From positions 1,046 through 65,045 of the forward strand of contig JABMNX010000040.1 in assembly GCA_013204405.1 (NCBI GenBank): a stretch of DNA of 64,000 nt, in the 5' to 3' direction. The position numbers and the translations under genes are program-made. This document shows, piece after piece, positions 7,231-64,000 of this stretch; position 1 is the stretch's first letter, and each line of letters opens with the position of its first letter. Source of the DNA: Candidatus Kaiserbacteria bacterium (lineage in GTDB: Bacteria; Patescibacteriota; Minisyncoccia; Phycocordibacterales; JABMNX01). Under the pieces are notes generated by a model. It saw only the letters and a list, made by a program, of their open reading frames with translations. It did not search any database and had not been told where the DNA came from.

Positions 7231-7309
7231 GGAAATAAAAAATAGAACTCAATATCAAAAAAAGGTTACGTGGAAAAAGCACGGGTTTGAGAAAAACTTT
7301 GGTTCAAAA

Positions 7310-7519
7310 ATGTTAAATGGGATTACTTATGGAGTCTTTGGTTTGCCAATACTTCTTGGTATTTTTGCAGTGCCAGTTGCATTAGCGTTGTTGCCAGTAA
7401 CACTTCTTGTTGATTGGTTGTTTCCTAATCTTGTCTTTCCATACAATTTATTTTTCCAACTTCCTATTGCTATATACGTGGTCTGGCAAGTTTGGAAGTT
7501 TTTGGAGGAAAAAGATTAA
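7310..7519 (+). CDS. small hypothetical membrane protein (69 aa)
   Basis: MLNGITYGVFGLPILLGIFAVPVALALLPV... has two TM helices. The listed ORF 7133..7519 starts at GTG inside the structured leader, so the internal ATG at 7310 is preferred. Confidence 0.4.
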   Translation: MLNGITYGVFGLPILLGIFAVPVALALLPVTLLVDWLFPNLVFPYNLFFQLPIAIYVVWQVWKFLEEKD

Positions 7520-7523
7520 CTTT

Positions 7524-8123: not shown

Positions 8124-8125
8124 TT

Positions 8126-8437
8126 ATGAAAGTTTCTATTCCAAAAGAATATCTGGGACATTTTCAAGAAGATATAGCATTCCTTACTTGGTGGAAGAAA
8201 CCAACACTACTTTTAATGAATAAAGACGAAAAAGAGTCCTTTCAAGAAACACTGGAGAAGGGTGTGTGGATACGCTTCGCGGAAGGTTGCGAATGGAGTC
8301 CTCTTTGTATGCCTATCGTTGAATTAGTCATAGAAGACGGAATAATTAGCATTCCTACCCCAGAAGACCCTAGAAGGCGTTTACGAGGTAAAAATAGGGT
8401 ATTTACAAGTGATAGAGCTGGTATTGTTCTATCTTAA
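8126..8437 (+). CDS. hypothetical protein (103 aa), island gene 2
   Basis: Starts 3 nt after gene 1. No recognisable motif. Confidence 0.45.
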   Translation: MKVSIPKEYLGHFQEDIAFLTWWKKPTLLLMNKDEKESFQETLEKGVWIRFAEGCEWSPLCMPIVELVIEDGIISIPTPEDPRRRLRGKNRVFTSDRAGIVLS

Positions 8438-8501
8438 TAAGGTGATTTGTCCCTATTGGAGTGTTATAAATTAGTATTAAGTTCGTGATAAAATAGAAGT
8501 A

Positions 8502-9092
8502 ATGACTAAACTAATGACAGTAACAAAGGAAAACGGGGTGACACAACGTAGTGACATCACTCTTACGAAAGAGACTGCTGTTACGCTGTCACAAAACATA
8601 CTTTTGGGCAGGAGTTTATTGACTAGAGAGGCAGAAAAAAAGGGAGTAGTAGAGCTTATTGGAAACGACGGAGGGCTTGTCACTGTGCCGTATCATACAC
8701 TACGTATGTGGATAGTTAGAAAGAATGTTATACCAGAGACAGGCAATGTTTTGAGGGACATTTTGGACGAAGCAAGAGAGGAATATCGTAACATCAAAAA
8801 GAGGGAAATGGACGAAAAACGGGAGGAAGTAATCGACAAGAAGTTTAATAGGGTTATATCTATGAGGACGAAAGAGCCAGCGGTAGGAATGTTCGGAGTG
8901 GTCAAAGACCCTATAACGAAAAAGCCAGTCTACATTGAGAATGTGAAACTGCTCGCAGAGCAAATGAAGAACGTACGCTTTTTGGCAGAGCGTTTATATT
9001 CAAACCGCTATGGAAAAGTTATGAAGAGTGAAAACAAGAACCTAACACTCTCTCTTTCAGACTTACGGAAGTATGAGGAGAGACAAAAATAA
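8502..9092 (+). CDS. hypothetical protein (196 aa), island gene 3
   Basis: Basic, K/E-rich C-terminus. No recognisable motif. Confidence 0.45.
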   Translation: MTKLMTVTKENGVTQRSDITLTKETAVTLSQNILLGRSLLTREAEKKGVVELIGNDGGLVTVPYHTLRMWIVRKNVIPETGNVLRDILDEAREEYRNIKKREMDEKREEVIDKKFNRVISMRTKEPAVGMFGVVKDPITKKPVYIENVKLLAEQMKNVRFLAERLYSNRYGKVMKSENKNLTLSLSDLRKYEERQK

Positions 9093-9139
9093 TACCTTCT
9101 ATTGCAATGTAAAGAATTGTAAAGTATACTGGTTTAATT

Positions 9140-10090
9140 ATGTCAAACAAAAAACTTGGTAAATTAGACAATGTTAAGTTGAGAGACATTTGGGAAAATG
9201 AGGAAAGAGATTTTTCTTCTTGGCTTATTGAACCAGAAAATCTAGCACTTCTTGGTGGCGAGTTAGGTATAGACATTTCTTTTATTGAAAAAGAAGCTGG
9301 TGTTGGAAAGTTTAGTTTGGATATTCTTGCGAAGGAGGCGAACACGAACAGAAATATAATAATTGAAAACCAGCTTGAAATTACAGACCACGACCACTTA
9401 GGTAAAATTATTACCTATGCGGCGGGGCATAATGCTTCCATTGTGATATGGATTTTTAAGGATATTCGGGAAGAACACAGACAAGCTGTTGATTGGCTGA
9501 ATGAAAATACGAATGAGGAGTTATCGTTTTTTGCTGTGAGAGTTGAGGCGTGGAAAATTGACAATTCTGCCCCTGCACCAAAGTTCCATATTATAAGTAG
9601 ACCAAATGAATGGGCTAAAACTGTCAGGAAAAGTTCTGAAGGTGGCAGTTTGGGTAAGACCAAACTTAAACAATTAGATTTTTGGACTAACTTGAAATCG
9701 TATGCAACAGGTAAAGAAGTCACATTATTTAGTAGGACACCTCGTTCACAACATTGGTATGACGTTTCTATTGGGTCGTCTGAAGCCCATATATCACTGA
9801 CTGTGAACACGAGAGACAAGATATTTTCTTGTGAGTTGTGGATAAATAACAATAAGGATATTTTTAATTTTTTGAAGGAACAAAAAGAAAAAATTGAAAA
9901 GGAATTAGACACCTCTCTTGTGTGGAAAGACGAGAATATGATTGCATCAAGAATAATACAACGACGACCTAATTCTGATTTGGATAGTGAGGAAGAAATG
10001 GAGACCTACTATGATTGGTTTATAGAAAGAACAATAGTTTTCCACAAGGTTTTTGGTAAGTTTCTTAATGATTTTAAGAATGAAAGCTAA
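9140..10090 (+). CDS. DUF4268-type protein with an N-terminal PD-(D/E)xK-like (restriction-endonuclease fold) domain
   Basis: The N-domain motif FSLDILAKE...IIIENQLEITDHDHLGKIITYAAG resembles the nuclease-like family commonly co-encoded with type I R-M systems. Confidence 0.5.
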   Translation: MSNKKLGKLDNVKLRDIWENEERDFSSWLIEPENLALLGGELGIDISFIEKEAGVGKFSLDILAKEANTNRNIIIENQLEITDHDHLGKIITYAAGHNASIVIWIFKDIREEHRQAVDWLNENTNEELSFFAVRVEAWKIDNSAPAPKFHIISRPNEWAKTVRKSSEGGSLGKTKLKQLDFWTNLKSYATGKEVTLFSRTPRSQHWYDVSIGSSEAHISLTVNTRDKIFSCELWINNNKDIFNFLKEQKEKIEKELDTSLVWKDENMIASRIIQRRPNSDLDSEEEMETYYDWFIERTIVFHKVFGKFLNDFKNES

Positions 10091-10262
10091 AGATTTTTAT
10101 ACTGCTCGAAACTTGGCAGACAAGTTAGGAGTAAATATAATGACGATTTATCGTTATATAAAAGCGGGTAAACTTAATGCTCACAAAATTGGAAAGGAGT
10201 TTCGCATTGACAAAACCGAGTTTGAGGCATTTTTAATAAAAACAAGAACAAATAAGAGGTAA
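10080..10262 (+). CDS. excisionase-family (TIGR01764-like) helix-turn-helix DNA-binding protein
   Basis: [46 protein letters not shown] matches the Xis-family HTH pattern. An alternative start lies at 10053. Confidence 0.6.
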
Positions 10263-10281
10263 AAATAATCAAACCTTTATT

Positions 10282-11844
10282 ATGGCAAAAGAAAAAAAAC
10301 AGAGAAAAACAGAGAAAAATGGGGACGAGAACTTTGAAGCACAACTATTCAAGGCGGCTGATAAACTCCGAAAAAATATAGACGCTGGCGAATACAAGCA
10401 CATAGTGCTTGGTCTTATTTTCCTTAAATATATCTCCGACGCTTTCGAAGACCATTATAAGAAACTAAAAGAAGGCAAGGGAAAATATAAAGGAGCAGAC
10501 CCAGAAGATAAGGACGAATATAAAGCTGAAAATGTCTTTTGGACACCACCAGAAGCACGTTGGACATATTTGCACTCACGAGCAAAACTTCCAAGCATAG
10601 GAAAGGATTTGGACGCGGCAATGGAAGTAATAGAAAAAGAAAACCCAACCCTTAAAGGTATCTTAACGAAAGATTATGCTAAACCTAACTTGGATAAAAT
10701 TGCGCTTGGTGAATTAGTTGATTTAATTTCTAATATAGCTCTTGGAAAGGAAACAGATAAGTCGAAAGATATTATCGGACGCGTTTATGAATACTTTCTT
10801 GGCGAGTTTGCTTCACTCGAAGGTAAAAAAGGAGGGCAGTTCTATACACCACGAAGCATTGTTGAGTTAATGGTAGGAATGACAGAGCCATTAAAGGGGC
10901 GTGTTTTTGACCCCGCTTGTGGCTCTGGTGGTATGTTTGTAAGCTCTGAAAGGTTTGTGGAAGCACACCAAGGGCGTGTAGCTGATATTTCAATCTATGG
11001 GCAAGAAAGCAACCACACCACCTACCGTCTTTGCCGTATGAACCTTGCTTTGCGTGGCATAGACGGCTCACAGGTATCTTGGAATAGCGAAGGGTCGTTT
11101 TTGAAGGACGCACACCCAGACCTTAAAGCGGACTATATCCTCGCCAACCCACCATTTAATCAAAGTGATTGGGGTCACGACATTTTGAGAAATGATGTCC
11201 GTTGGAAATATGGAGTACCGCCAGAAGGAAATGCGAACTACGCTTGGTTACAACATATGGTTCACCACCTTGCACCAAAGGGAGTTATGGCAACGGTTCT
11301 CTCTAACGGCTCACTTTCTGTTGGCGGAGTTGAGGGTGAAATGAGGAAGAAATTGGTAGACGACGATTTAGTAGATTGTATTGTGGCTTTACCAAAACAA
11401 CTTTTCTACAACACGGGTATTCCTGCTTGTTTATGGTTCATATCACGAAAACGTCTTGGAAATGGCGATAGAAAACGAACAGGAGAAATCCTTTTTATTG
11501 ACGCTTCAGAAAAGGGATTTATGGCAGACAGAACTCACAGAGAGTTTACACAAGAAGACATACAAGAGATTGCTAATACATATCACGAATGGAGGAAGGA
11601 AGGAGGTAAGTATGAAGACATTAAGGGCTTCTGTAAGTCTGCCTCCTTGGAAGAGGTAGAGAAGAATAATTATGCTCTAACTGCTGGGCGATATGTGGGT
11701 ATTGCAGACGAAGAAGACGACGGAGAACCGTTTGAGGATAAAATGAAACGACTAACAGAAACTTTGAAAGAACAAATGTCAGAAGAGGAAGAATTGAATA
11801 AAGAAATTAAAAAACAACTTAAAAGAGTTGGGTTTGATATATGA
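10282..11844 (+). CDS. hsdM: type I restriction-modification N6-adenine DNA methyltransferase subunit M
   Basis: Motif [13 protein letters not shown] and motif [14 protein letters not shown]. 520 aa. HsdM N-terminal region [25 protein letters not shown]. Confidence 0.92.
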
Positions 11845-12476
11845 GTAAAAATCTACCCTACACAGCACCATACAAAGGAGGAGACGCTTTCAACTGCCCA
11901 AACTGCGGAGCATTTGCTAATCAGTCGTGGGCAGAGCACTGGCATAATAACGAGGCAAGTTTGGACGGTCTTACTACGTCAAGGTGCGCGCGGTGCAATG
12001 ATTATGCGGTATGGAAATACGGAAATCTTATATGTCCTCAAACCTCACCCATAGAGCCACCAAGCAATGATTTACCAACAGAAGTAAAGACTGATTACGA
12101 GGAAGCAGCTAAAATTGTTCAGCAATCACCACGAGCTGCGGCAGCTCTTTTACGCTTAGCTATTCAAAAGCTTTGTGTTCACTTAGGAGGAAGCGGAAAG
12201 AAACTTAACAATGATATAGCTAATCTTGTTAAAGAGGGACTGCCAACTAAAATCCAACAAATGCTTGATACGGTTCGTGTTATAGGTAATCACTCTGTCC
12301 ACGCGGGGGTTATAGACTTAAATGATAATCCTCAAACAGCAGAAACTCTTTTCAAACTTGTAAATATAGTTACGGAGAAAATGATTACAGAGCCAAATGA
12401 AATAGACGCTATATACGATAGTTTACCAGAGGACGATAAGGAACAGATTGGTAAAAGAGATAACACAGAAAAGTAA
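11841..12476 (+). CDS. DUF4145 (HEPN-superfamily) protein with an N-terminal zinc ribbon, embedded between hsdM and hsdS
   Basis: CPNCG...CARC zinc ribbon. LRLAIQKL...[13 protein letters not shown] carries an R-x4-H motif typical of DUF4145/HEPN. Overlaps the hsdM stop by 4 nt. Confidence 0.6.
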
Positions 12477-13637
12477 ATGACAAAGACATTATCAAAATGG
12501 AATAGAGATAAATTAGGAAATACTATTGCTCTTGTAAAAAATAGTTGGCGTCCAAGTGACGAGAACATAAAATATGTTGGGTTAGAACATATAAACCAAG
12601 ACGAGCTTTCCTTAAATGGAGTTGGTGCTTCAGAGGGTTTGGCAAGCAATAAGTTTCGTTTTTCAAAGGGTGACATTCTTTTTGGTAAATTAAGACCATA
12701 CTTTCGCAAGGTGGTTAGACCAAGTTTTAATGGGGTGTGTTCGACAGATATTTGGGTTATGCGAGCTAAAGAGGGATATGACCAATCCTATTTGTTTTAT
12801 TTTATGGCTAATCCTGTTCTCATAAGTAAATCTATGGGAGCAAGCACAGGAACTCATATGCCGAGAGCTGATTGGAATTATCTGTCAGGGACAGAGTGGT
12901 ATTTTCCAGAATTATCAGAACAAAAAGAAATTGCGGAAGTACTTTCAAGCTTGGACGATAAAATAGAGCTTTTACAAAAGCAAAGCGAAACATTAGAACA
13001 AATAGCACAAGCACTTTTTAAGGAGTGGTTTTTGGAGTTTAATTTTCCAGATAAAAATGGAAAGCCGTATAAAAAGTCGGGTGGAAAAATGAGTGACAGT
13101 GAATTAGGTGAGATACCAGAGGGGTGGGAGGTTGGTTTTCTTAATGATATTTCGGAGATTACTTCTGGAAAGAGACCAGACAATAGTGTTGATAAAAAAA
13201 CTAAAACACACCAGATTCCTCTTGTTGGAGCTACGAGAATTATGGGGTATGTAGAAGAACCTTTGTATGACGAAGACATATTAGTTATTGGTAGGGTTGG
13301 AACACACGGCGTTATTCAAAGATTTTACGATAGAGTTTGGGTGTCGGACAATGCTTTTGTTATAAAATCAAAAGATTTTGTTTTTTTATACCACGTTCTT
13401 AAAAATATAAATTATGAAAAGTTAAATAAAGGAGCTGTACAGCCACTAATAACCCAGACTGATTTGAAAAATTATAAACTAGCAATGCCAAACGACAATG
13501 TTATGGATTTATTTGGAATGGCTGGTTCAGAAGTTTTCTTAAAATTAAAAGAGAACAGTTTTCAGGTTAACGTTCTTAGTAAAATCAGAGATTTTCTGTT
13601 ACCAAAACTAATGAACGGAGAAGTTCGGGTAAAATAA
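12477..13637 (+). CDS. hsdS: type I restriction-modification specificity subunit S
   Basis: 386 aa in two-TRD arrangement with conserved central and distal repeats (LPSLEEQKEIAEVLSSLDDKIELL-like segment: SEQKEIAEVLSSLDDKIELLQKQ). Confidence 0.88.
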   Translation: MTKTLSKWNRDKLGNTIALVKNSWRPSDENIKYVGLEHINQDELSLNGVGASEGLASNKFRFSKGDILFGKLRPYFRKVVRPSFNGVCSTDIWVMRAKEGYDQSYLFYFMANPVLISKSMGASTGTHMPRADWNYLSGTEWYFPELSEQKEIAEVLSSLDDKIELLQKQSETLEQIAQALFKEWFLEFNFPDKNGKPYKKSGGKMSDSELGEIPEGWEVGFLNDISEITSGKRPDNSVDKKTKTHQIPLVGATRIMGYVEEPLYDEDILVIGRVGTHGVIQRFYDRVWVSDNAFVIKSKDFVFLYHVLKNINYEKLNKGAVQPLITQTDLKNYKLAMPNDNVMDLFGMAGSEVFLKLKENSFQVNVLSKIRDFLLPKLMNGEVRVK

Positions 13638-13646
13638 GACATATGA

Positions 13647-14558
13647 GTGACTATGAAAAATATAAAACTGGCAATAGAGGAAAATGAAAAGTGGACTAAC
13701 TTGCACTCATACATTGAGTTAATAGAACAAAATTGTGATAGTAATCAGGGAGTTGCGCTTGACGGGGCAAAGAGTTTACTTGAAAGTATTTCAAAAACTA
13801 TTTTAGCTGACCGTGGAATTGTTTATGCTCCAGACGCGTCTCTTGGACGCCTTGTAAAAGACGCCGTTAGGTCACTTCCTTCTTTTGATATATTAGATAA
13901 ACAAGACGCTGATGTTGTGGTTCGTATAGTGAGTGGCTTGGAAAGCGTCTCGTCCAGTATTGGTTCTCTCCGAAACAGGCACGGAACGGTAGGACACGGA
14001 AAAGATTTACACGAAGAGCGAGAATTAGATAGACGTCTCGCGAACCTTGCAATTTCTTGTGTGGACAATCTAGCTGGTTTTCTAATGGAAGCACATTCCT
14101 CTGAACCAGACGGAATAAAAAGACTTCGCTATGAAGATTTCTCTGGTTTCAATGAAAGATTTGACGAACAACAGGAGCAAATAGAGATTGAAGGTATCGT
14201 AATAAGTCCAAGTCGCGCTCTTTTCGACCAAGATATTGAAGCGTTCAAGGAGACAGCAATTGCTTTTGGACAAAAAGAGAAGTTGGTTGACGATTTGGAG
14301 ACAAGTTTTAATTTTGTTACCACACACAACATCATTGAAGGTCTATCAAAACACAAAGATTTTTCAGAGGCACAAGTAAGACGTTTAGTATCTATATGCT
14401 CTACTAATAATCAGGTCGAGTGGATTATAGGAGACCCTGATGTTCATAAGTTTTATTCAGGAATCCTCTCAAATTACAGACATTATATGCCAACAGAACA
14501 AGCAGAGTACCTTTTTCTTTTATTAAATGAAAATAAATCTGAAGACCTTGATTTTTAG
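13647..14558 (+). CDS. hypothetical 303-aa protein in the PrrC-equivalent slot (between hsdS and hsdR), with a candidate HEPN-like R-x5-H motif
   Basis: SLRNRHGTVGHGKD at residues 108-121 (nt ~13971). No P-loop. Acidic C-terminal half. Confidence 0.4.
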   Translation: MTMKNIKLAIEENEKWTNLHSYIELIEQNCDSNQGVALDGAKSLLESISKTILADRGIVYAPDASLGRLVKDAVRSLPSFDILDKQDADVVVRIVSGLESVSSSIGSLRNRHGTVGHGKDLHEERELDRRLANLAISCVDNLAGFLMEAHSSEPDGIKRLRYEDFSGFNERFDEQQEQIEIEGIVISPSRALFDQDIEAFKETAIAFGQKEKLVDDLETSFNFVTTHNIIEGLSKHKDFSEAQVRRLVSICSTNNQVEWIIGDPDVHKFYSGILSNYRHYMPTEQAEYLFLLLNENKSEDLDF

Positions 14559-14602
14559 TACTAAGTGGACTATTTAGTGAATAGTTGTTCTAATAGATAA
14601 AA

Positions 14603-17600
14603 ATGACAAAAATATACGAAGACGACATAGAAAAATGGGTTATAGAACTTCTTGAAAAAGAGGGATATGTTTATTTATCCCCACAGGAGCAGGAAGTAGA
14701 AAGACCTGACCTAAAGGAAGTTATCCTAAAAGGACGCTTGGAACAGGCGGTGGCTCGGCTTAACTCCAATATCTCTCCAGAAGCCCGCGAGGAGGCAATA
14801 AAGCGGGTTTTTAACCTCGTTCCACAGCATTTGGTAGAAAGTAATGAGACATTTCAAACAATGCTCACAGACGGCGTGAGTGTGGAAGTCCCAGCCGAGC
14901 AAGGTGGCACTCGTGGAGAAATAGTTCACCTTGTTGATTTTGAAAATCCTACAAACAACGACCTTATAGTAACTAACCAATTTACTATTCCTTATGACCA
15001 TACTAGCAAGAGACCTGACGTAGTACTTTTGATAAATGGGCTTCCTCTTGCCGTAATTGAACTCAAAAATCCTGCTGACGAAAATGCTACGGTTCATAAG
15101 GCATTTACACAACTTCAAAACTACAAAGACGCAGTGCCACAACTTTTTGTATACAACGGTATTTTAATCGCTTCTGACGGATTAGACGGACGGGTAGGTT
15201 CTCTAACTGCTCCGTGGGAGAGATTTTATTTATGGAGAGAGCCAGATAAAAAAGAGAAAGAAAAAGTAAAACCACAAATGGAAACGATTATAAAAGAAAT
15301 GCTTCAGCCAGAAGTTCTTCTTGATTTAATAAGAAACTTTACTGTCTTTGAAAAAGTGAAGAAAGAAGATAAGAAAACAGGAAGAGTTGTTGTAGAGACA
15401 ATTAAAAAAGTGGCGGCGTATCACCAGTATTATGTAGTGAATAAAGCCATTACTTCTACTATAGAGGCGACAAGTGAGAAGGGAGAGCGAAAAATAGGAG
15501 TGGTTTGGCATACACAAGGTTCAGGAAAATCTCTTTCAATGGTTTTTTATACAGGAAAAGCTGTTCTCTCTCTTGGTAATCCAACAGTTGTCGTCATTAC
15601 AGACAGAAATGATTTGGACGACCAACTTTTTGGAACATTTTCAGCAAGCAAAGGACTTTTAAGACAAGAGCCAATTCAGGCAAAAAGTAGAGAGCACTTA
15701 AAAGAACTTTTACAAACAGCAGGTGGTGGAATTATCTTTACGACTATTCAAAAGTTTTTTCCAGAGAACGGAGGCGAAACTTATGATGAGTTAACAGATA
15801 GGAGAAATGTTGTAGTCATTGCAGACGAAGCTCACCGTTCACAATATGGTTTTGCGGCGAGAACTGTATTTAAGGACGAGCAAGCTATTACAAGATATGG
15901 TAATGCAAAGTATTTACGGGACGCTTTACCAAATGCTTCGTTTATTGGCTTTACTGGAACACCTATTGAAAGTGCAGATAAATCTACACCAGCAGTGTTT
16001 GGTAAATATATTGACGTATATGATGTTCAAGACGCGGTAGAGGACGGGGCAACCGTGCCTATTTACTACGAAAGTCGATTAGTAAAAGTTCATTTGCCAG
16101 TAGAAGAGAGTATGAAAATTGACGCGGAAGTTGAGGCGGTTGCCGAAGGGGTAGAGTTTACTGCTAAAGAGAAAGCAAAAGCAAAATGGGCGCAACTAGA
16201 GGCGGTAATTGGTAATCGTGCAAGACTTAAAGAGATTGCCAAAGATTTGGTGGAGCACTACGAAGCACGACAAGAAGTGAATATAGGAAAAGCAATGATA
16301 GTTGCTATGAGTAGGAGGATTGCTGTTGAACTGTATGAAGAAATCATTGAACTTCGTCCTGAATGGCACAACAAGGATTTTGACAAAGGAGCAATAAAGG
16401 TTGTGATGACTGCGAACTCTTCTGACCCAAAAGAGTTCCAGCCACATCATACAAATAAACAAGACAGACAAAGATTAGCTACTCGTTTCAAAGACGCAGA
16501 TAATGAACTAAAAATTGTTGTTGTTTGTGATATGTGGCTTACAGGATTTGATGTGCCAAGTTTACATACTATGTATGTAGATAAGCTAATGCGAGGACAC
16601 AACTTAATGCAAGCGATAGCTCGTGTAAACCGAGTGTTCAGAGATAAAGAAGGGGGACTTATTGTTGATTATATTGGTTTTGCGGCAGATTTACAGAAGG
16701 CACTTGCTATTTATACACAAAGCGGAGGAAAGGGAGACCCTACACTAACCCAACAAAAAGCTATTGAAGTGATGTTGGAGAAATATGAAGTGGTAAAACA
16801 AATGTTCCATAACTTTGATTATCGCCGATACTTTACTGTTGATACACAAGGAAAGCTAGAGGTTATTTTGGAAGCACAGGAACATATTCTTGCACAAGAT
16901 AATAAAGAAGGTAAAAGTGGAAAAGAAAAGAAGGAGGGTATACAAGAAAGATATACACGAGAAGTAACTGCACTCTCAAAAGTATTTGCTATCGCCATTC
17001 CAAGCGAAGAAGCTTTTTCTATACGAGACGAAGTAGCATTTTTTCAAGCCATTAAATCACGTTTAATAAAGTTTGACCCAGACCCAGAAGGCAGACGGGA
17101 AGATATAGATACTGCTATCAGGCAGATTATAGACCAAGCCATTGTTACTGAAGGTGTGGTGGATATTTTTGCAGCTGCAGGTATACAAAAGCCAGACCTT
17201 TCTGTTCTCTCTGACGAGTTCTTATCAGAGGTACAGAATATGAAGCACAGAAACTTGGCAATGGAATTATTGAAACGTGTAATTGACGACGAAATAAAGG
17301 CACGGTTAAGAAAGAACTTTATTCAAGGAAAGAAGTTATCTGAAATGCTTGAAAAGACGCTTAAAAAATACCAAAACAATCTTCTTACTGCTTCTGAAGT
17401 AATTCAAGAGTTGATTAAGTTGGCGAAGGAAATAAAAGACGCAGACGCCCGTGGCGAGGACTTAGGGCTATCAGAGGACGAGATAGCTTTCTATGACGCT
17501 TTGAGTGACAACGGTAGTGCAAAAGAGGTATTGGGAGATAACACACTTCGTGACTTAGCGAGAGTTCTTGTAGAGAAGGTCAGGGGTAGTGCAACGATTG

Positions 17601-17752
17601 ACTGGACTATCAGAGAGAATGTAAGAGCGAAGCTCCGTGTGCTTGTGAAAAGAACACTTAATCAGTTTGGGTATCCGCCAGACAAACAAGCTATTGCCAC
17701 AGAGTTTGTATTGAAGCAAGCAGAACTCTTTGCTGACGAGTGGACTAAATAG
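14603..17752 (+). CDS. hsdR: type I restriction enzyme endonuclease/helicase subunit R
   Basis: 1049 aa. Walker [16 protein letters not shown] box [11 protein letters not shown], motif [10 protein letters not shown], plus a C-terminal HsdR tail. Confidence 0.92.
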
Positions 17753-17872
17753 TTATGGAGACAAAAAAGAAAGTGGAATGGACAAAGGAAGAAAGAGACA
17801 GAATAGTCGGTTTCTTCGACCTTTTGATAAAAGTGGACAAGAGGCAAAATCCACATTTGTATAAAAAACAAA

Positions 17873-18520
17873 ATGAGCGGCAATCCAATAAATGAATTAG
17901 AAGAAAAGTTCAATGCTTTTATAAACGAAAAAGACGACCATAGATTTTTCCTGCGTCTTTCAAAGTATTTTCAATTTATTGAAGATACATTTCCTTTGGA
18001 CAACATAGTAAAAAAACTTTTCTCTTCTCCTTCTGAACTTTCTATGTTTAAGAATATAGAAGGTTTGTATAATTCTATCGTCCTACATAAATCACCTACT
18101 CGTTTTTCAATTAGTCCAAGTTCTGTGGACGGGTCTGGTATCCGTACTTTACACAAGCGTCTTATTGAAGAAGCGAGAAAATCAGGTCTTGCGAGGGTGT
18201 CTGTAATAGAAAGAAGTGTTGACGGTAGTTATACATTCAACGGGGCGACAATACCTTTTGGCAGAAAAACAATTAAATATCACATATTCGATTATCTATA
18301 TAACTCACCTAGCCACAGAGTTTCTTATGCGGAAATAGATAAATATCTTGTAAGGAATGGGTTTGGTGTAATGAAGAATAACGAAAAAAGAAGTGAAAGA
18401 ATAAGGAGGGCTGTGACAGGTTATCGTGACAAACAAAAAAAGCATTCACAGGTAGGCAATATATCCATATTAGAAATAGAGCACAATTTTGGAGTTAAGC
18501 TGAACAATCCTTTGGTTTGA
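17873..18520 (+). CDS. hypothetical protein (215 aa)
   Basis: No motif recognised. Last gene before the terminator. Confidence 0.45.
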   Translation: MSGNPINELEEKFNAFINEKDDHRFFLRLSKYFQFIEDTFPLDNIVKKLFSSPSELSMFKNIEGLYNSIVLHKSPTRFSISPSSVDGSGIRTLHKRLIEEARKSGLARVSVIERSVDGSYTFNGATIPFGRKTIKYHIFDYLYNSPSHRVSYAEIDKYLVRNGFGVMKNNEKRSERIRRAVTGYRDKQKKHSQVGNISILEIEHNFGVKLNNPLV

Positions 18521-18552
18521 GTTTGTGTTGTAGATAAAAAATAACGAACCTA

Positions 18553-18585
18553 GAAAAGCCCTATGAAAGGGGCTTTTTTGTTTTG
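18553..18585 (+). terminator. rho-independent terminator
   Basis: GAAAAGCCC-tatgaaa-GGGGCTTTT followed by TTTTGTTTTG. Confidence 0.6.
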
Positions 18586-18961
18586 TATACCAAAAAAGGA
18601 CTATTAGGGACTACTAAACCTGACTGGGAAAATATACATAGCACAACCACTTCGTGTGCAGTGCTTACAAGAGAAAAAGAAGACACGGTGTTTCGGGGAA
18701 GTCCGTGGATAAATAAAAACTTCTCCGTAAACGGAAGCTCTCTTCAGGCACAAATGCGAACGCTGGGGAAAATGTTGACCACTCGTCCCAGCCGTCTAAT
18801 TTGTGTCGGAATGGAGTAGGTGTGGGGAATGCGAGAGGTCGTTCATTCCTATCACATCAACTTTCTTCTCTCACATAAAACAACTCACAAATCCTATTTA
18901 GTAGGAAAGTGGGGCATATGAACAAAACTAGAAAAATAAAGTCAAAGATTATATAATTACT

Positions 18962-19147
18962 ATGCTACGCGAGAACAGTCAACTTCATAATAAAAAAATT
19001 GAACCCAGAAAGGGGCAACGAACTTCCTCGCGTAGCAATGTGAGGTCTCGTTGTCCCTCTTTGCGTTATGATTTTGTTAAAGAAAATCAAGAGAATGTTA
19101 ATAGAGCTTTTGATGTCCTTTTTGAAGCTATTACAAACGTGAGATAA
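18962..19147 (+). CDS. small basic ORF (61 aa) directly upstream of the recombinase gene, a possible recombination directionality factor
   Basis: MLRENSQLHNKKIEPRKGQRTSSRSNVRSR... A TATAAT-like box lies at about 18952. No homology recognised. Confidence 0.2.
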   Translation: MLRENSQLHNKKIEPRKGQRTSSRSNVRSRCPSLRYDFVKENQENVNRAFDVLFEAITNVR

Positions 19148-19155
19148 TTTTATTT

Positions 19156-20769
19156 ATGAATACACCACAGAAAACAACTAAACTTATTGCTATGTATGCT
19201 CGTGTTTCAACCTCCCACCAAGAGGAAGAACAGACTATAGAAAACCAAATGAACGCAATGAAAGAGTATATTGAAGGTAAGGGGTATACCGTGGTGCGTG
19301 TGTATAAAGACGAAGGGTGGAGTGGTGATAGTCTTATACGCCCAGCTCTTGATAGATTAAGGCAAGACGCTAAAGACAAAATCTGGGAGGGTGTACTTAT
19401 ATATGACCCTGACAGACTGGCTCGTCGATACTCATATCAAGAACTTGTTTCTGACGAACTTAGAGAAGCGGGTATTGAAGTTATGTATGTTACGGTTTCA
19501 GCTCCTAAAAACAATGAAGACAAAATACTTCACGGAGTAAGAGGATTGTTTGCAGAATACGAGAGAGCAAAAATTACTGAAAGATTTAGGTTGGGTAAAC
19601 TACGTAAAATAAAGAATGGTCACATTTTAGTAAGTGAACCGCTGTATGGATATTCTTATGTACCCAAAAATGATAAACAGCACGGTTATTATGAAATTAA
19701 CGAACAAGAAGCTAGTGTTGTGAGGCAGATTTTTTCTTGGGTTGCAGACGAAAAAATGACATTACGAGGAATTGTTAGGAGGTTACAGAAAGAGAATATA
19801 AAACCACGAAAAAGTAAGCGTGGGGTTTGGAGTACAAGCACATTAAGCACAATGCTACGAAATGAGGCATACATTGGCGAGGCACACTGGGGCAGTTCTT
19901 ATGCTGTTATTCCAGAAAAGCCACTGAAGGAGGAAAAATATAAGAAGATAAAGAAAAGTAGTCGGAGAATAAAACCGAAAGAGGAATGGCTAATTATTCC
20001 TGTTCCAGTAATAGTTGGTAAAGATATCTTTGAGAGAACACGAGCACAACTGAAAAGGAACTTTGCGCAGTGTAAAAGAAACAAAAAGAACGATTATCTA
20101 CTGTCCAGTCTTATTTATTGTGAGTGTGGTCGTAGGAGGGCTGGGGAGGGGGCTATGAATGGTAAACATTTATATTATCGTTGTACTGATAGGGTACATA
20201 GTTTCCCGCTAGCACCGACTTGCAAGGAAGGAGGTATAAACGCGAGAGTGTCAGATAAATTAGTGTGGGAGAAAATCTCAAAGCTAATGACTTCACCTGA
20301 ATTATTGAATAAGCAAATTGAAAGGTGGAACAGAAGCCAGAAAACAAAAACTAGTGGGACTATATTTAATGTTGAGTCTTTGGAGACTGAATTAAATAAG
20401 CTAAAGAAACAGGAAGATAGATACAACAAAGCGTATGGTGCTGGAGCATTTAGTGTTGAGCAACTAAAGGAGTACACATCTCCTCTGAAACAGCATATTA
20501 GTGAGGTAGAGATACAAATTGCGGAAACAAGAGAACAAGAAAAAGAGCAAAAGATTAGTAAATTACCAAGTGAAGCAGATGCCAAAGTATTTGCAGAGAG
20601 GGTTAAAGAAAATATAAATAACTTGAACTTTTCCTCAAAACGAGAGATAGTATTGTCTGCGGTGGAGAAAATCGTAGGCACACAAGAAAAGTTATGTGTA
20701 TCTGGGTATATCCCCGTAGATAATTATGTCTCATTCAAAACTAACCATCGGAATCGTTGGACTCCCTAA
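19156..20769 (+). CDS. large serine recombinase (resolvase/invertase N-domain, recombinase domain and zinc-ribbon)
   Basis: IAMYARVSTSHQEE (catalytic Ser), LDRLARR-like DPDRLARRY, and C-x2-C...C cysteines (CECGRR...YYRCTDR). 537 aa. Confidence 0.85.
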   Translation: MNTPQKTTKLIAMYARVSTSHQEEEQTIENQMNAMKEYIEGKGYTVVRVYKDEGWSGDSLIRPALDRLRQDAKDKIWEGVLIYDPDRLARRYSYQELVSDELREAGIEVMYVTVSAPKNNEDKILHGVRGLFAEYERAKITERFRLGKLRKIKNGHILVSEPLYGYSYVPKNDKQHGYYEINEQEASVVRQIFSWVADEKMTLRGIVRRLQKENIKPRKSKRGVWSTSTLSTMLRNEAYIGEAHWGSSYAVIPEKPLKEEKYKKIKKSSRRIKPKEEWLIIPVPVIVGKDIFERTRAQLKRNFAQCKRNKKNDYLLSSLIYCECGRRRAGEGAMNGKHLYYRCTDRVHSFPLAPTCKEGGINARVSDKLVWEKISKLMTSPELLNKQIERWNRSQKTKTSGTIFNVESLETELNKLKKQEDRYNKAYGAGAFSVEQLKEYTSPLKQHISEVEIQIAETREQEKEQKISKLPSEADAKVFAERVKENINNLNFSSKREIVLSAVEKIVGTQEKLCVSGYIPVDNYVSFKTNHRNRWTP

Positions 20770-21832
20770 TGTGGGGAAGTCCACATTATTTAATGCATTA
20801 ACAAAGCGCTCTGTACCAGCGGAGAATTTTCCATTTTGTACAATTGACCCTTCTGTAGGTGTTGTTGCAGTCCCAGACAGTAGACTTGAAAAACTTACCA
20901 CGCTTTCAAATTCACAAAAGACTATACCAACTGCAATTGAGTTTGTTGATATTGCAGGGCTTGTAAAAGGAGCATCCGATGGAGAAGGTCTTGGAAATAA
21001 ATTCCTTTCACATATTAGAGAAGTAGACGCAATAGCACACGTGGTGCGACTTTTTGAGGATACCGACATAACACATGTTCACGGCACTATTAATCCAGTT
21101 GATGATATTACAGTGATTAATCTAGAACTTATTATTGCTGATATGCAAACAGCCGCTAAACGGATGCAGTCAATAGAGCGAGAAGTGAGACGTGGAGATA
21201 AAGAAGCAGTTCTTGAGCACCATACTGTTACTAAAATTTTAAAGACTCTTGAGGCAGGGAATCTTGCTCGATCAACTGAACTTAATGAAAAAGAAGAAGA
21301 GGTTATTAAAGGACTCCACCTTTTGACTATGAAGCCAATGTTGTATGTCCTCAATAAGAAGGCAAATGCACTTAACTTGGACGAAGAGAACGGAGAACGG
21401 TATGAAAAACTCCTGCAATTTATTGAGGATTCACATGCACAGTATGTAATTATTGATGCGGGAGTAGAACATGAGCTTAAAGATGTTTCTCCTGAAGATA
21501 AAGATGAGTTTCTTCGTGAGTTTGGAGTAGTCGAAGATGGAGTAAGTGCATTTATTCAAATGGGATACAGATTACTTGATTTGATTACATTCTTTACGAC
21601 AGGTGAAGATGAAACACGGGCATGGACAGTACTACGGGATAGTTCTGCTCCTGATGCAGGAGCTGCTATCCATTCTGACTTTCGAGATAAATTTATTAGA
21701 GCTGACGTTGTTGCGTACGAGAAGCTTATGGAGGCAGGTTCATACGCCATTGCACGGGAAAAGGGTTCGGTGCGCACCGAAGGGAAGGCATATGTTGTGC
21801 AAGATGGCGACATTATAGAATTCAGAATATAA
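20726..21832 (+). CDS. ychF: ribosome-binding ATPase YchF
   Basis: IGIVGLPNVGKSTLFNALT G1 motif, DIAGLVKGAS G3 region and a C-terminal TGS domain. 368 aa. Confidence 0.93.
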   Translation: MSHSKLTIGIVGLPNVGKSTLFNALTKRSVPAENFPFCTIDPSVGVVAVPDSRLEKLTTLSNSQKTIPTAIEFVDIAGLVKGASDGEGLGNKFLSHIREVDAIAHVVRLFEDTDITHVHGTINPVDDITVINLELIIADMQTAAKRMQSIEREVRRGDKEAVLEHHTVTKILKTLEAGNLARSTELNEKEEEVIKGLHLLTMKPMLYVLNKKANALNLDEENGERYEKLLQFIEDSHAQYVIIDAGVEHELKDVSPEDKDEFLREFGVVEDGVSAFIQMGYRLLDLITFFTTGEDETRAWTVLRDSSAPDAGAAIHSDFRDKFIRADVVAYEKLMEAGSYAIAREKGSVRTEGKAYVVQDGDIIEFRI

Positions 21833-21877
21833 TTGACTTTTACATATTTAGTTGTATAATTTTTACTTAGGAACAGT

Positions 21878-22408
21878 TTGCAGCAAATTGCTGCTTCATC
21901 AGAAAAAGGATTTTCAAAAATGAAGGGTAACAAAGGTTTCCTTCTCATAATTACTTTGTTTGTTTTAGTTCTTTTGATTGGGCTTACCTTCTTCATCAAC
22001 AAGAAGGTTCATGCAGAGGAAACAGAAATATGGGAGTGCGTTCACGTACTTCCATCTAATAACCCAAACCTTGATGGCGAACTGAAGAAAAACCTAAAGG
22101 TTTTGAGTGTCAGTTGTGTTGAAGAGAAGCCTGATCATGCAGTTATCTTTCTTCAGGTTGGCCGCCCACACCGTAAGCATGAGCTAGGAAGTCCTCAGTT
22201 CTCAATTCTTGTTGGTGTCTGGGTCACATATAATGACGGACATTCTGTGAAGGAAGGTGAGTGGGTTGGAGAATCAAATCCCCAAGAAATCAAAGGAAAA
22301 TCTGGGTTTTCTAATAACGACCTGGTCGCGTGGGGAATGGTCGCTGAAGCAATCCAGAATGGGAAAAGCAATTTCCACACAACCGTCCGGCTATTGAGAG
22401 GACCGTGA
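21878..22408 (+). CDS. hypothetical membrane-anchored/secreted protein
   Basis: Signal anchor FLLIITLFVLVLLIGLTFFI. An alternative start lies at 21920 (MKGNKG). Confidence 0.45.
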   Translation: MQQIAASSEKGFSKMKGNKGFLLIITLFVLVLLIGLTFFINKKVHAEETEIWECVHVLPSNNPNLDGELKKNLKVLSVSCVEEKPDHAVIFLQVGRPHRKHELGSPQFSILVGVWVTYNDGHSVKEGEWVGESNPQEIKGKSGFSNNDLVAWGMVAEAIQNGKSNFHTTVRLLRGP

Positions 22409-60156: not shown

Positions 60157-60169
60157 AAAGACAGAAATA

Positions 60170-60196
60170 AACGCCAAGGGTACCCTTGGCGTTTAA
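60170..60196 (+). terminator. terminator-like perfect hairpin AACGCCAAGGG-ta-CCCTTGGCGTT
   Basis: 11-bp stem with a weak T tract (TTaaTaTc). A second perfect hairpin AACAACAAGG-tcac-CCTTGTTGTT at 60226-60249 is followed by TGGTTTCGTTGATTTT. Confidence 0.45.
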
Positions 60197-60296
60197 TATC
60201 AATGGGAATAAGGGTTATTTACATAAACAACAAGGTCACCTTGTTGTTTGGTTTCGTTGATTTTAACAATATTTTGTGCGATTATAATATGCAATT

Positions 60297-61004
60297 ATGG
60301 CATATCTAAAATTTATACCAGACAAAAACCTCATTGCTATTGTGGGTAAAGTAGTTGAGGTGATCATAGCAGCTGAGAATAATGCAGATGAAAAATTATA
60401 TAAGAATGTGATTGACCCATTTTCTGCATTATTTCACGGAATAACCAAATCAATGTCATACAAAGAATGGCTTACTGAAGAGAAAACCCGGCAAATACAA
60501 AAGACTATGCAAAACGCAATTGGTAATTTTCACCAAGAAATAATTGGCTCTGTGCGTGATTGGGAAGACCTTGGTGCCGGTGGTGGTTTAGATGTTATAA
60601 ACAAAAAAAAGAGAATCATTGCAGAAATGAAGAATAAATTTAATACTACTAAAGGTAACCATAGGGTTGAAATATATGATGCTATAGAAGCGAAAATTAA
60701 GTCAAAAGAATACACTGGGTATACTGGGTATTATGTAGAAGTTATCTCACAAGGTAGGAATGTATATGACAATCTGTTTACTCCACCAGATAATAAGATT
60801 AAGAAAAATCGCCCTGAAAATAAAAAAATTCGAGTAATCGACGGTGTAAGTTTTTATGCGTTAACGACAGGTCGACCACACGCTTTGCAGGAATTATTCC
60901 AAGCGATTCCTGAAGTGTTATCAGACAACTATAAATACAAATTGAATAAAAAAGATCTCAAGCAATATTTTAGTTTGTTTGAAAAAGCTTTTTCCACAGA
61001 GTAA
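60297..61004 (+). CDS. candidate type II restriction endonuclease, possibly Eco47II-family-like
   Basis: Immediately upstream of and co-oriented with an m5C methyltransferase. Candidate PD-(D/E)xK core GLDVINKKKRIIAEMKNK (D...ExK). The family call is from memory only. Confidence 0.45.
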   Translation: MAYLKFIPDKNLIAIVGKVVEVIIAAENNADEKLYKNVIDPFSALFHGITKSMSYKEWLTEEKTRQIQKTMQNAIGNFHQEIIGSVRDWEDLGAGGGLDVINKKKRIIAEMKNKFNTTKGNHRVEIYDAIEAKIKSKEYTGYTGYYVEVISQGRNVYDNLFTPPDNKIKKNRPENKKIRVIDGVSFYALTTGRPHALQELFQAIPEVLSDNYKYKLNKKDLKQYFSLFEKAFSTE

Positions 61005-61063
61005 CCATTGCATAGGCAATGGTTACTTTCGTATAATAACTACAACTTAAAAGTTGTAGTTAT
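61001..61063 (+). promoter_or_regulatory. two perfect palindromes between the R and M genes: GTAACCATTGC-ata-GGCAATGGTTAC (61001-61026) and ATAACTACAACTT-aa-AAGTTGTAGTTAT (61036-61063), with a TATAAT box at 61032-61037
   Basis: Read directly. The first palindrome overlaps the REase stop codon. The second abuts the methyltransferase ATG and RBS. The methyltransferase has an N-terminal HTH that could bind such an operator. Confidence 0.5.
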
Positions 61064-61064
61064 T

Positions 61065-62312
61065 ATGAAAATAAAAAGACAATTCATAACAGCTGGAGAA
61101 GCGGCTATAAAATTGAATATCTCTATTGATACTGTTCGTCGTTGGGATAAGAGAAATTTAATAAAATCTTTTAGAGATAAGAGAAACTTGAGAATGTTTA
61201 GTCTGGAGGAGATAAAAAGAATACAAGAAAAGGCTAATGGAAAGAAAAAGGATAAATTTATTATCTTAAAGAACAAAAAAAAATACAATTACACTGCTAT
61301 CGAGCTGTTTGCTGGTGCTGGTGGGACTGCTTTAGGAATGGAGTATGCTGGCATTAAGCATGTTTTATTAAATGAACACGATAAGCATGCTTGCGAAACA
61401 CTGAGAACTAATAAGCCAGAATGGAACATCATAGAGGGGGACGTTAAAGAAATAAAATTTAAAGAAGGACAAGCTGACATAGTGCAAGGTGGATTTCCAT
61501 GTCAGTCTTTCTCATATGCAGGTAAAAAAATGGGGCTAGATGACATTCGAGGAACTTTGTTTTTTGAGTTTGCTAGATGTGTGAAAGAAGTTAAACCTAA
61601 AATAGCAATAGGAGAGAACGTTAAGGGTTTATTGAATCATGATGGAGGTAGAACTATCAAGACTATGGTTTCTATATTAGAGAAACTTGGATATAAGGTC
61701 AAATATAAAATTTTAAAGTCTCAATATCTTGATGTTCCACAAAAAAGAGAGCGGTTAATAATTATTGGGGTTAGAAATGATTTAAACATACCTATAGTGT
61801 TTCCAGAGGAAAAAGATTACATTGTTTCCTTGCGAGATGCATTACATAAATGTCCTCAGTCAGATGGACAGCAATATCCAGAAAAAAAGAGGAGGATCAT
61901 GGAATTAATCTCGCCTGGAGGATATTGGAAAGATTTACCAGAAAAACTCCAAAAGGAATACATGGGTGCTAGTTTTTATATGGGAGGTGGTAAAACAGGA
62001 ATGGCGCGCCGTTTAGACTGGGACGAACCATCTCTTACTTTAACTTGTAGTCCAGCTCAAAAACAGACTGAGCGATGCCACCCTGAAGAAACACGACCAT
62101 TGTCTGTTAGAGAATACGCTAGAATTCAAACATTCCCTGATAGTTGGAAATTTGCTGGATCCGTGACTCAACAATATAAGCAAATTGGAAATGCAGTACC
62201 AGTAAACCTTGGTTATCATATAGGCAATACTGTTATCAAAATGTTGGAAGGTAAAACTGAGGAACATATCGATGATCTGGTCTATACAGAACAAAAAATG
62301 TTCCAGTTCTGA
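61065..62312 (+). CDS. dcm: DNA (cytosine-5)-methyltransferase with an N-terminal HTH regulatory domain
   Basis: Motif I ELFAGAGG, motif IV GFPCQSFS, motif VI ENVKGL, motif VIII QKRERLIIIG. The N-terminal ~60 aa (ITAGEAAIKLNISIDTVRRWDKRNL) is MerR/Xis-like HTH. The listed ORF starts at 61008. Confidence 0.9.
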   Translation: MKIKRQFITAGEAAIKLNISIDTVRRWDKRNLIKSFRDKRNLRMFSLEEIKRIQEKANGKKKDKFIILKNKKKYNYTAIELFAGAGGTALGMEYAGIKHVLLNEHDKHACETLRTNKPEWNIIEGDVKEIKFKEGQADIVQGGFPCQSFSYAGKKMGLDDIRGTLFFEFARCVKEVKPKIAIGENVKGLLNHDGGRTIKTMVSILEKLGYKVKYKILKSQYLDVPQKRERLIIIGVRNDLNIPIVFPEEKDYIVSLRDALHKCPQSDGQQYPEKKRRIMELISPGGYWKDLPEKLQKEYMGASFYMGGGKTGMARRLDWDEPSLTLTCSPAQKQTERCHPEETRPLSVREYARIQTFPDSWKFAGSVTQQYKQIGNAVPVNLGYHIGNTVIKMLEGKTEEHIDDLVYTEQKMFQF

Positions 62313-62343
62313 TGAAATATTTAATGCCTATACAAATAAAAAC

Positions 62344-62565
62344 ATGCAACCATATAACGATGTAGATAATGATTCTAATATTGAGGCATTTGAAACTGGT
62401 GATGATTACATATCAGTAAAGTTTTTCCATGGGTCTACATACACTTATACTTATTCAAGTGCAGGATCTAACAATGTTGAAGAAATGAAAAGATTAGCGC
62501 ATGCCCATGATGGGCTTAATTCATATATTAATAGACACAAGCCTGATTATGCTAGTAAACGATAA
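62344..62565 (+). CDS. KTSC domain protein
   Basis: ISVKFFHGSTYTYTYSS...GSNNVEEMKRLAHAHDGLNSYINRH fits the KTSC pattern (I.V.F..G..Y.Y..V). Internal ATG of ORF 62272..62565. Confidence 0.5.
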   Translation: MQPYNDVDNDSNIEAFETGDDYISVKFFHGSTYTYTYSSAGSNNVEEMKRLAHAHDGLNSYINRHKPDYASKR

Positions 62566-62582: not shown

Positions 62583-63008
62583 GTGAAAGTTCTAATTTAT
62601 ATAGGAATAGCTATTATATCGATATTTACTCTGTTGTTTGTTATTGGTTTCATAATGTCTTTTATAAATTCAAGGAAAAGATTTAAACCACATGCCCACT
62701 TTCTTTATGATCAGTTCTCTGGTGTCGAAAAAGAATCTATCATGGAAATATGGAATGCGTTTAAATCTAAGAAACCAGATTTGGCAAACAATACAGCTCT
62801 AAACATTAACAGTGCTGATGAGGTACACATAAGAGAAGTTTTAAATCTTTTAAACAGACCTAGCGATTTATCTGGAGGCAAAACAAATGACACGGTAATT
62901 TGGAAAATCTACGTTTCAGAAGCAGAAAAGATTGGACTAAACCGAAGCGCCGCAGAGATAGTAGCTGGGATTGGATTCCATGGAATTGATGAAATAAAAT
63001 ATTTATAA
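62583..63008 (+). CDS. membrane-anchored protein with ComEA-like helix-hairpin-helix motifs
   Basis: N-terminal TM. LNINSADEVHIREVL and LNRSAAEIVAGIGFHGIDEI are HhH-like. Confidence 0.4.
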   Translation: MKVLIYIGIAIISIFTLLFVIGFIMSFINSRKRFKPHAHFLYDQFSGVEKESIMEIWNAFKSKKPDLANNTALNINSADEVHIREVLNLLNRPSDLSGGKTNDTVIWKIYVSEAEKIGLNRSAAEIVAGIGFHGIDEIKYL

Positions 63009-63017: not shown

Positions 63018-63416
63018 ATGTTTCGAATAATAAGAAGAGTTAGGAGAAGGAAGCCGACTAAGCACTACAGTGCACATAAGGAAACGGCTCGGGCATTTGT
63101 ACATGCTCACGTGGCTCTGTACGCGAAAGAGCATGGGTTTAAGTACAACAGGATTGCGATTCGTAATTCCAGGCGGTCTTGGGGAAGCTGTTCTGAACTA
63201 GGCAACCTAAACTTTCACTATAGAATTATATTTCTCCCACAAGAACTAGCGGAGTATCTAATCGTACACGAACTATGTCATCTGAGAGAGTTAAATCACT
63301 CTCCTCAATTTTGGGCACATGTAGAAGAAATTATTCCAAATTACAAAGAACACAAGAAAAACCTCATGACGCATAGCGGTTTAGCTACTAAAACGCCTAG
63401 TGTTTTAGTGGTTTAA
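63018..63416 (+). CDS. DUF45/YgjP-like zinc metallohydrolase (WLM/M48-like fold)
   Basis: LIVHELCHLRELNHSPQFWAHVEEIIPNYKEHKKNL carries the HExxH plus NHS...FW signature. Confidence 0.7.
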   Translation: MFRIIRRVRRRKPTKHYSAHKETARAFVHAHVALYAKEHGFKYNRIAIRNSRRSWGSCSELGNLNFHYRIIFLPQELAEYLIVHELCHLRELNHSPQFWAHVEEIIPNYKEHKKNLMTHSGLATKTPSVLVV

Positions 63417-63436: not shown

Positions 63437-64000
63437 ATGACATTAACTAAGACGGAGTTTAAGGAGTGGCTATTGTGTGGCAAATGCTTGTGGCTAAAGA
63501 AGAAAAGGCCAGAAGAGTATGTTGCTGGGGAGTTTTCTCTTTTTCTTAAAAAACTTATAAAAGACGGTTACGAAGTTGAGGCACAAGTTCAAAAACTATA
63601 TCCAAACGGTATTTTCGTATCTGGAGATAAAGAAACTCTTTTGTCGAAGACAAAAGAGTTGCTGGGGGGAGACAAGCCAATCTTTCAGGCAACATTTGAA
63701 ACAGTGCAGGGGCTTTTCGCTAAAGTCGATATGCTTAATTTTAATAAAGAAACGAGCAAGTGGGATTTGTATGAAATAAAGGCATCTTCTGAGATAAAGA
63801 CAGATTTAAAACATAATCACATTAAGGACGTCGTCTTTCAAACTATTGTTGTGGAAGATGCAGGAGTTGAAGTTGGTGATAGCTATATCATATATATAAA
63901 TAAAAAATACAGGCGTGACGGAGAAGTCGACCTTAAAGAACTTTTTGTTATTGAAAATGTTACTGAAATAGTTTCCGAGCAGAAAAGTGGAGTTCGTGAC
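63437..64000 (+). CDS. DUF2779-like PD-(D/E)xK nuclease family protein (3' truncated by window edge)
   Basis: Open frame from the ATG at 63437 to the window end. Not in the ORF track because it has no stop. N-terminus LTKTEFKEWLLCGKCLWLKKKRPEE matches the DUF2779 start pattern. Putative D...EIK motif (DLYEIKASS). Confidence 0.5.
   Translation, partial: MTLTKTEFKEWLLCGKCLWLKKKRPEEYVAGEFSLFLKKLIKDGYEVEAQVQKLYPNGIFVSGDKETLLSKTKELLGGDKPIFQATFETVQGLFAKVDMLNFNKETSKWDLYEIKASSEIKTDLKHNHIKDVVFQTIVVEDAGVEVGDSYIIYINKKYRRDGEVDLKELFVIENVTEIVSEQKSGVRD

Follow-up and report, generated by a model that had tools for sequence, protein, structure and literature searches.

The locus described here raises the question of how a methyltransferase that carries its own DNA-binding domain might control its own gene. 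The 64-kb stretch of contig JABMNX010000040.1 from a Candidatus Kaiserbacteria bacterium that was analyzed (the window) contains a two-gene restriction-modification (R-M) cassette, in which a restriction endonuclease gene (R) and a C5-cytosine methyltransferase gene (M) with an N-terminal helix-turn-helix (HTH) lie in tandem on the + strand. Two strong interrupted inverted repeats separate R from M (Table 1). An earlier reading of the sequence alone (the original prediction) described these repeats as perfect palindromes, the second flanked by a TATAAT box and the M start codon, and favored the second one as the operator for autoregulation of M. The positions given for both open reading frames, the HTH, the TATAAT box and the ATG are correct. 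However, both repeats are interrupted and larger than claimed, and repeat 2 is not flanked by the TATAAT box and the ATG but overlaps with the former and with the first two letters, AT, of the latter. Comparative genomics strongly supports the proposal that M is autoregulated through an inverted repeat, but the evidence points to repeat 1, whose sequence is conserved and which occurs together with the HTH. A probability of roughly 0.65 is assigned to a model in which M represses its own transcription through repeat 1, while repeat 2 would form an RNA hairpin that gates read-through from R.

In repeat 1, a 4-nt non-palindromic centre, ATAG, separates the 12-nt arms, and the core (61003–61024) reads AACCATTGC-ATAG-GCAATGGTT. 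The repeat covers both the R stop codon TAA (61002–61004) and a −35-like hexamer, TTGCAT (61008–61013), and GGNCC, the predicted target of the cassette, was not found within it. The set used for comparison comprised 104 loci around R homologues, two annotated plasmid loci and two contigs with the closest relatives of M; a metagenome scan contributed only 24 loci. Defined as AACCnTTGC-N4/5-GCAAnGGTT with at most three mismatches (mostly none or one), the repeat 1 motif precedes M in 81 of the 83 loci with an M that bears a MerR-type N-terminal domain, and was not found in any of the 14 loci with an HTH-less M (Fisher test, 4e-15, a statistic that ignores phylogeny). The two exceptions among the 83 are L098, which keeps one half-site, and L002, in which the motif is present but followed by an insertion. 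This GC-rich segment of ~220 bp (within L002 855–1140) lies between the M −10 box and hairpin 2, contains palindromes of its own (TCCCGAGTACTCGGGA and CCTGCC..GGCAGG), and could be a miniature mobile element that sits in the leader of M.

The strongest rival to an operator function is that repeat 1 is merely a terminator or 3′ stabilizer of R, with the HTH binding elsewhere or nothing in the cassette. The repeat overlaps the R stop codon, folds into a strong RNA hairpin (−19.4 kcal/mol, z −7.7), and is followed by a U-rich tail in relatives (GGTTATTTG), all of which would suit such a role. This reading is nevertheless unlikely. The sequence of repeat 1 is conserved down to ~40% R identity, whereas pairing of its arms (89.4% of cells) is no better than in column shuffles (89.9%) and 25 of 35 sequences have a mismatch at one position, so that it is the sequence, not the structure, that is conserved. 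The motif is also missing from every HTH-less locus, and in five loci with divergent or convergent genes (L048, L055, L058, L071 and L075) it stays at the 5′ end of M, apart from the 3′ end of R. Because it follows the M gene whatever the orientation of R, repeat 1 is not simply the R 3′ end. The conserved sequence, the co-occurrence with the HTH, the position at the −10 box and the lack of covariation, each obtained in silico, thus indicate that repeat 1 is likely the operator for M autorepression.

The position of this predicted operator relative to the M promoter is also retained. Among 80 distinct loci, TAnnnT starts 5–6 nt past the motif in 58, exact TATAAT is present in 35, and the TGn of an extended −10 element precedes the box in 41. 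The distance from the end of the operator core to the −10 box is 5–7 nt, and the core covers the −35 region, not the promoter spacer. In several distant cassettes the M −10 box is 6–7 nt from the ATG, a leaderless layout typical of these genomes, which supports the assignment of the M promoter. Within the window, a Shine-Dalgarno-like motif precedes only 4 of 51 long open reading frames (ORFs), and many ORFs have a −10-like hexamer 6–12 nt upstream of the ATG, which suggests that mRNAs here are mostly leaderless or have short leaders. At this locus, the TATAAT box would place the M transcription start near 61044, and repeat 1 would then span about −44 to −17.

In contrast to repeat 1, repeat 2 differs in sequence from one relative to the next. 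Located between the TATAAT box and the ATG, it is the longest inverted repeat of the window, and its overlap with the −10 box and the start codon would be ideal for a repressor. Even so, it is very unlikely to be the operator bound by the M HTH. Its sequence is wholly different at this locus (AACTACAACTT), in the closest relative, L107 (TTAACAGCAAGA), and in most relatives (ATGATAGAT), varying even between close relatives while the recognition helix of the HTH (S20, T23, W27 and K29) is invariant. The original prediction had staked itself on the palindromes recurring in homologous cassettes; this holds for repeat 1, but the repeat 2 hairpin was not found in the more distant HTH-M cassettes, where repeat 1 persists.

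What is conserved in repeat 2 is its pairing. The arms pair in 94% of cells relative to 87.7% in shuffles, a value reached by none of 500 shuffles, and double changes are observed in 6 of the 8 pairs. With unbiased scoring, G:U exceeds A:C mismatches by 14:1, an excess which indicates that repeat 2 pairs in sense-strand RNA. Here and in L107 the stem extends from the −10 box to the AUG (16 bp, −17.6 kcal/mol). Downstream of the core stem, 26 of 37 sequences have a T-tract, which is lacking at this locus and in L107; these AT-rich stems were not called by a terminator scan, and an Rfam search returned no family near its gathering score. The two possible kinds of M transcript fold differently. 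RNA that reads through from R forms two strong hairpins (−37 kcal/mol, z −9.6), the second of which buries the AUG, whereas RNA initiated at 61044, missing most of the left arm, is unstructured (−3.4 kcal/mol, z −0.4). Since the genome is almost devoid of Shine-Dalgarno sequences, translation should depend critically on an open start region, and the folded read-through RNA with its buried AUG is thus probably terminated or untranslatable for M. On this comparative evidence, repeat 2 is probably an RNA hairpin that acts on read-through transcripts of R.

The protein proposed to bind repeat 1 begins with a domain of the MerR type, in line with the Xis/MerR-like HTH first suggested for it. Residues 8–56 of M match Pfam MerR, MerR_1 and HTH_17, with no match to HTH_3; the MerR_1 score is 23.5 bits (cut-off 21.6) and that of MerR, 27.6 bits, is just below its cut-off of 28.2. 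In an AlphaFold2 (AF2) model, the topology is α1 (10–17), α2 (21–29), a β-hairpin wing (35–46) and α3 (47–57), followed by a Lys-rich linker of low model confidence (58–76) and then the methyltransferase domain. The nearest folds to the N-domain model are RacA, CarH, pSK1 Par, CadR, NmlR and GlnR, all of them MerR-type and none with a significant E-value; this search used a single-sequence model with a predicted local distance difference test (pLDDT) score of 68 and was taken as consistency evidence only. The individual matches are weak (Foldseek E at least 0.15, phmmer E at least 0.16). A PDB sequence search with the N-domain gave nothing significant (best E 0.16), and a HMMER search of 1.84 billion representatives with the 75-aa N-domain gave generic HTH_17/MerR repeats across many architectures and was uninformative on fusions.

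A MerR-type HTH, together with the weak −35-like hexamer and 18-nt spacer of this locus, could instead signify that M on repeat 1 is a MerR-style activator of the M promoter, or of something else, and not a repressor. This is quite unlikely for several reasons. In the AF2 model, neither a coiled-coil dimerization helix nor an effector domain was found after the HTH, and the operator would be centred near −31, over the −35 region and not inside the spacer. In addition, most relatives have a near-consensus TGnTATAAT, for which activation should be unneeded, and positive autoregulation of a methyltransferase is without obvious logic; all known HTH-methyltransferases act as repressors.

In the preferred model, two M molecules would each occupy one half-site of the repeat 1 core through the MerR-type HTH on its flexible linker. 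Bound M would cover the −35 region and exclude RNA polymerase, shutting off M transcription once M accumulates, and in a naive cell M would surge early and then settle at a low steady level. Transcripts that read through from R would carry the complete repeat 2 hairpin and would either be terminated, at the T-tract of most relatives, or have the M AUG buried, as at this locus. Transcripts from the M promoter would start inside the left arm and stay open, and the output of M would be set solely by its autoregulated promoter. Here we infer binding, the sign of regulation, the start site, and termination or occlusion.

Several points weigh against this model. The M promoter of this locus lacks the TG of an extended −10 element, its −35-like TTGCAT is weak with an 18-nt spacer, and it was not called by a generic sigma-70 scan of the window, which found as many promoter-like sites as in shuffles. 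The absence of a T-tract after repeat 2 makes termination at this locus doubtful, and the strong RNA hairpin of repeat 1 at the 3′ end of R leaves room for a terminator role. Activation is the classical role of MerR-family proteins. It is also conceivable that the HTH and the motif were co-inherited in one clade, as the co-occurrence statistic ignores phylogeny. Finally, the proposed model leaves the delay or control of R unexplained. The idea that M acts directly on the R promoter was considered and dropped: the regions upstream of R are not conserved, and no copy of the operator was found near the R start in relatives.

The enzymes themselves are consistent with a predicted Type IIP pair of the Eco47II/Sau96I kind, as the original prediction had proposed in calling the cassette Type II and its first protein possibly Eco47II-like. 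R matches Pfam RE_Eco47II (PF09553) with an E-value of 4.9e-53 (180.2 bits, cut-off 25.9) over profile positions 1–199 of 202. Residues D99, E110 and K112, for which a catalytic role is assumed, are invariant in 31 homologues. Both R and its homologues carry the NCBI name Eco47II family restriction endonuclease, and a PDB sequence search with R gave nothing significant. M, which is 415 rather than 416 residues long, has the expected Dcm-type features: the motifs FAGAGG (I), FPCQ (IV), GENV (VI), QKRER (VIII) and GNAVP (X) are readable in the translation, TIGR00675 is matched with 269.9 bits in addition to the DNA_methylase domain, and the AF2 fold matches those of M.HaeIII and M.HhaI. Its NCBI name is DNA (cytosine-5-)-methyltransferase.

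The predicted specificity was examined by counting GGNCC and CCNGG in 65 distinct cassettes (130 kb). GGNCC occurs only 12 times (0.09/kb) relative to 189 CCNGG sites (1.46/kb), a 16-fold difference, and 55 of the 65 cassettes contain no GGNCC. In the host flanks, GGNCC (0.69/kb) is ~2.3-fold rarer than CCNGG (1.62/kb). Thus, the under-representation that had been anticipated is strong at the level of the cassette. Depletion of GGNCC across the window (observed/expected 0.54) was discarded as evidence, as it is unspecific: CCNGG stands at 0.57, and GGCC and CCGG are equally depleted. The cassette-level avoidance supports GGNCC as the target and suggests that both enzymes are active. A decayed or orphan cassette, with an inactive R and relic HTH and repeats, is therefore barely credible, the in-frame stops in R of two relatives being outweighed by a full-length R here with D99, E110 and K112, by hundreds of intact homologous pairs and by the avoidance of GGNCC in cassettes and host flanks. 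In those two relatives, L025 (3917–4624, TAA) and L066 (4001–4690, TGA), M and the operator are intact; the stops could mean that these cassettes are decaying into orphan methyltransferases or, in the case of TGA, that an alternative genetic code is used.

Regulatory N-terminal HTH domains are found on the C5-methyltransferases SsoII/Ecl18kI, EcoRII, MspI, ScrFIA and LlaDII, in which the methyltransferase represses its own gene. The cassette resembles the SsoII/Ecl18kI group, to which the original prediction had likened it, in having an N-terminal HTH on a flexible linker (~70 aa in that group) and an inverted repeat, different from the methylation site, in the promoter region of M. The likeness is one of function only. 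The SsoII regulatory domain is similar to Xre and the 434 repressor (PMC3978073), whereas that of M is a MerR-type winged HTH. In addition, the SsoII/Ecl18kI genes diverge from competing promoters, and binding thereby also activates R, whereas R and M are in tandem here. Since the proposed operator lies at the 3′ end of R, ~700 bp downstream of its start, M binding there would have no apparent direct effect on the R promoter. A further difference is the covarying hairpin that lies between the −10 box and the AUG. Because of the 434/Xre-like domain and divergent genes of the SsoII/Ecl18kI/EcoRII group, the cassette is not a member of it.

Other likenesses are partial. As in Eco47II and Sau96I (GGNCC), an RE_Eco47II endonuclease is paired with a C5-methyltransferase, and the avoidance of GGNCC fits. 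However, in many Eco47II family members an HTH-less M precedes R and there is no operator, and those of gammaproteobacterial plasmids have divergent genes, a different N-terminal M extension, no such operator, and an intergenic GGACC. This GGNCC site lies between the divergent M and R of a Psychrobacter plasmid (L105, 2313–2414) and a Vibrio plasmid (L106, 2262–2405) and suggests a different, possibly methylation-sensing, control; at the Vibrio locus a second restriction endonuclease, of the TdeIII family, flanks M. EcoRI shares the tandem order: its R is followed by an M of like orientation, which relies on its own promoter near the end of R (PMC3141266). EcoRI differs from the present cassette in its promoters inside R and antisense RNAs and in lacking both an HTH on M and an operator. 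The N-domain itself resembles minimal MerR-type winged-HTH proteins (RacA, GlnR/TnrA and Xis-like HTH_17) in its α1-α2-wing-α3 order and lack of a sensor domain. It differs from these in being fused to an enzyme, with weak matches, and from classical MerR regulators in having no coiled-coil helix, no effector domain and a proposed operator over the −35 region rather than inside an over-long (19–20 bp) spacer. No MerR-type HTH on an R-M methyltransferase was found in reviews and targeted literature searches of incomplete coverage. The regulatory layer is thus predicted to be a MerR-type, tandem R-to-M variant of the known regulatory-methyltransferase theme, an assignment well supported by comparison.

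Table 1 Coordinates of the cassette, its predicted control elements and other features of the window
Feature	Position	Strand	Details
R gene	60297–61004	+	Eco47II-family Type II restriction endonuclease, 235 aa
Inverted repeat 1, proposed operator O_M	61000–61027	.	Arms 61000–61011 and 61016–61027
M promoter −10 box, TATAAT	61032–61037	+	TAnnnT kept in relatives, usually with upstream TGn
Inverted repeat 2	61033–61066	+	16-nt arms 61033–61048 and 61051–61066; 2-nt gap
M gene	61065–62312	+	C5-cytosine methyltransferase, 415 aa
M MerR-type winged HTH	61086–61235	+	Codons 8–57
M catalytic DNA_methylase domain (PF00145)	61293–62237	+	Codons 77–391; E=3e-85, 286.9 bits
Inverted repeat upstream of R	60168–60195	.	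Perfect 28-bp palindrome, 14-nt arms
Terminator-like hairpin upstream of R	about 60224–60250	+	12-nt arms, then GTTTCGTT
Candidate R promoter (predicted)	60263–60290	+	TTAACA 60263–60268, TATAAT 60284–60289
Type I R-M system	within 6230–22399		hsdM 10282–11844, DUF4145, hsdS 12477–13637, Abi_C 13653–14558, hsdR 14603–17752

The repeats around R are far beyond chance. Counting arms of at least 11 nt and gaps of at most 6 nt, five inverted repeats are present in the window, four of which flank R, relative to a mean of 0.1 in dinucleotide shuffles (n = 30). The region is AT-rich, as claimed, only mildly so (GC 0.347 at 60–62 kb relative to ~0.385 in the rest of the window). The two hairpins noted upstream of the cassette are real: the palindrome lies directly after a D-Ala-D-Ala carboxypeptidase gene and is terminator-like on the minus strand, and the second hairpin would insulate R against transcription from upstream. 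The candidate R promoter region is not conserved among relatives; its −10 box ends 7 nt before the ATG, which implies an R mRNA that is leaderless or nearly so. No small HTH ORF that could provide C-protein control was found within or adjoining the cassette, and the neighboring ORFs are not conserved with it. On the downstream side, a 97-aa ORF (62272–62565) without a Pfam match overlaps the 3′ end of M by 41 nt and has a single homologue among the fetched loci (L053); this ORF and the next (62583–63008) were rejected as cassette members because they do not travel with it. The fifth strong repeat (63634–63660, 12-nt arms, AACTCTTTTGTC/GACAAAAGAGTT) is downstream of a gene for a YgjP-like metallopeptidase (63018–63416).

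Elsewhere in the window, a 16-kb region (6230–22399) of normal GC content contains no GGNCC, with 17.5 sites expected from the rest of the window, and one CCNGG relative to 16 expected; GGCC, CCGG and GATC are nearly missing and GTAC is low. In addition to the type I R-M system, this region encodes a DUF4268 protein and a large serine recombinase (19156–20769), and it resembles a mobile defence island in which restriction sites are broadly avoided. Over the whole window, GATC stands at 0.21 of the Markov-1 expectation (42 observed, 200 expected), which hints at GATC-specific restriction pressure in this lineage.

To our knowledge, regulatory methyltransferases have been described in only a few proteobacterial and lactococcal systems, each with an Xre-type HTH. 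Tentatively, the cassette may represent an undescribed family of MerR-type HTH-methyltransferase autoregulators, widespread in Patescibacteria, that combines a conserved 22–23-bp operator with a promoter-embedded hairpin from whose folding only transcripts of the M promoter would escape. With the −10 box in or next to the 5′ arm of such a hairpin, transcripts that read through from the toxic R would undergo either termination or translational silencing. The R-M cassette itself is ordinary and already annotated, and the practical impact is therefore modest. The predicted operator can be read directly from about 80 genomes. If the independent fusion of a MerR-type HTH is true, regulatory-methyltransferase control would have evolved convergently, and it would be common in uncultured Patescibacteria, whose gene regulation is almost unknown.

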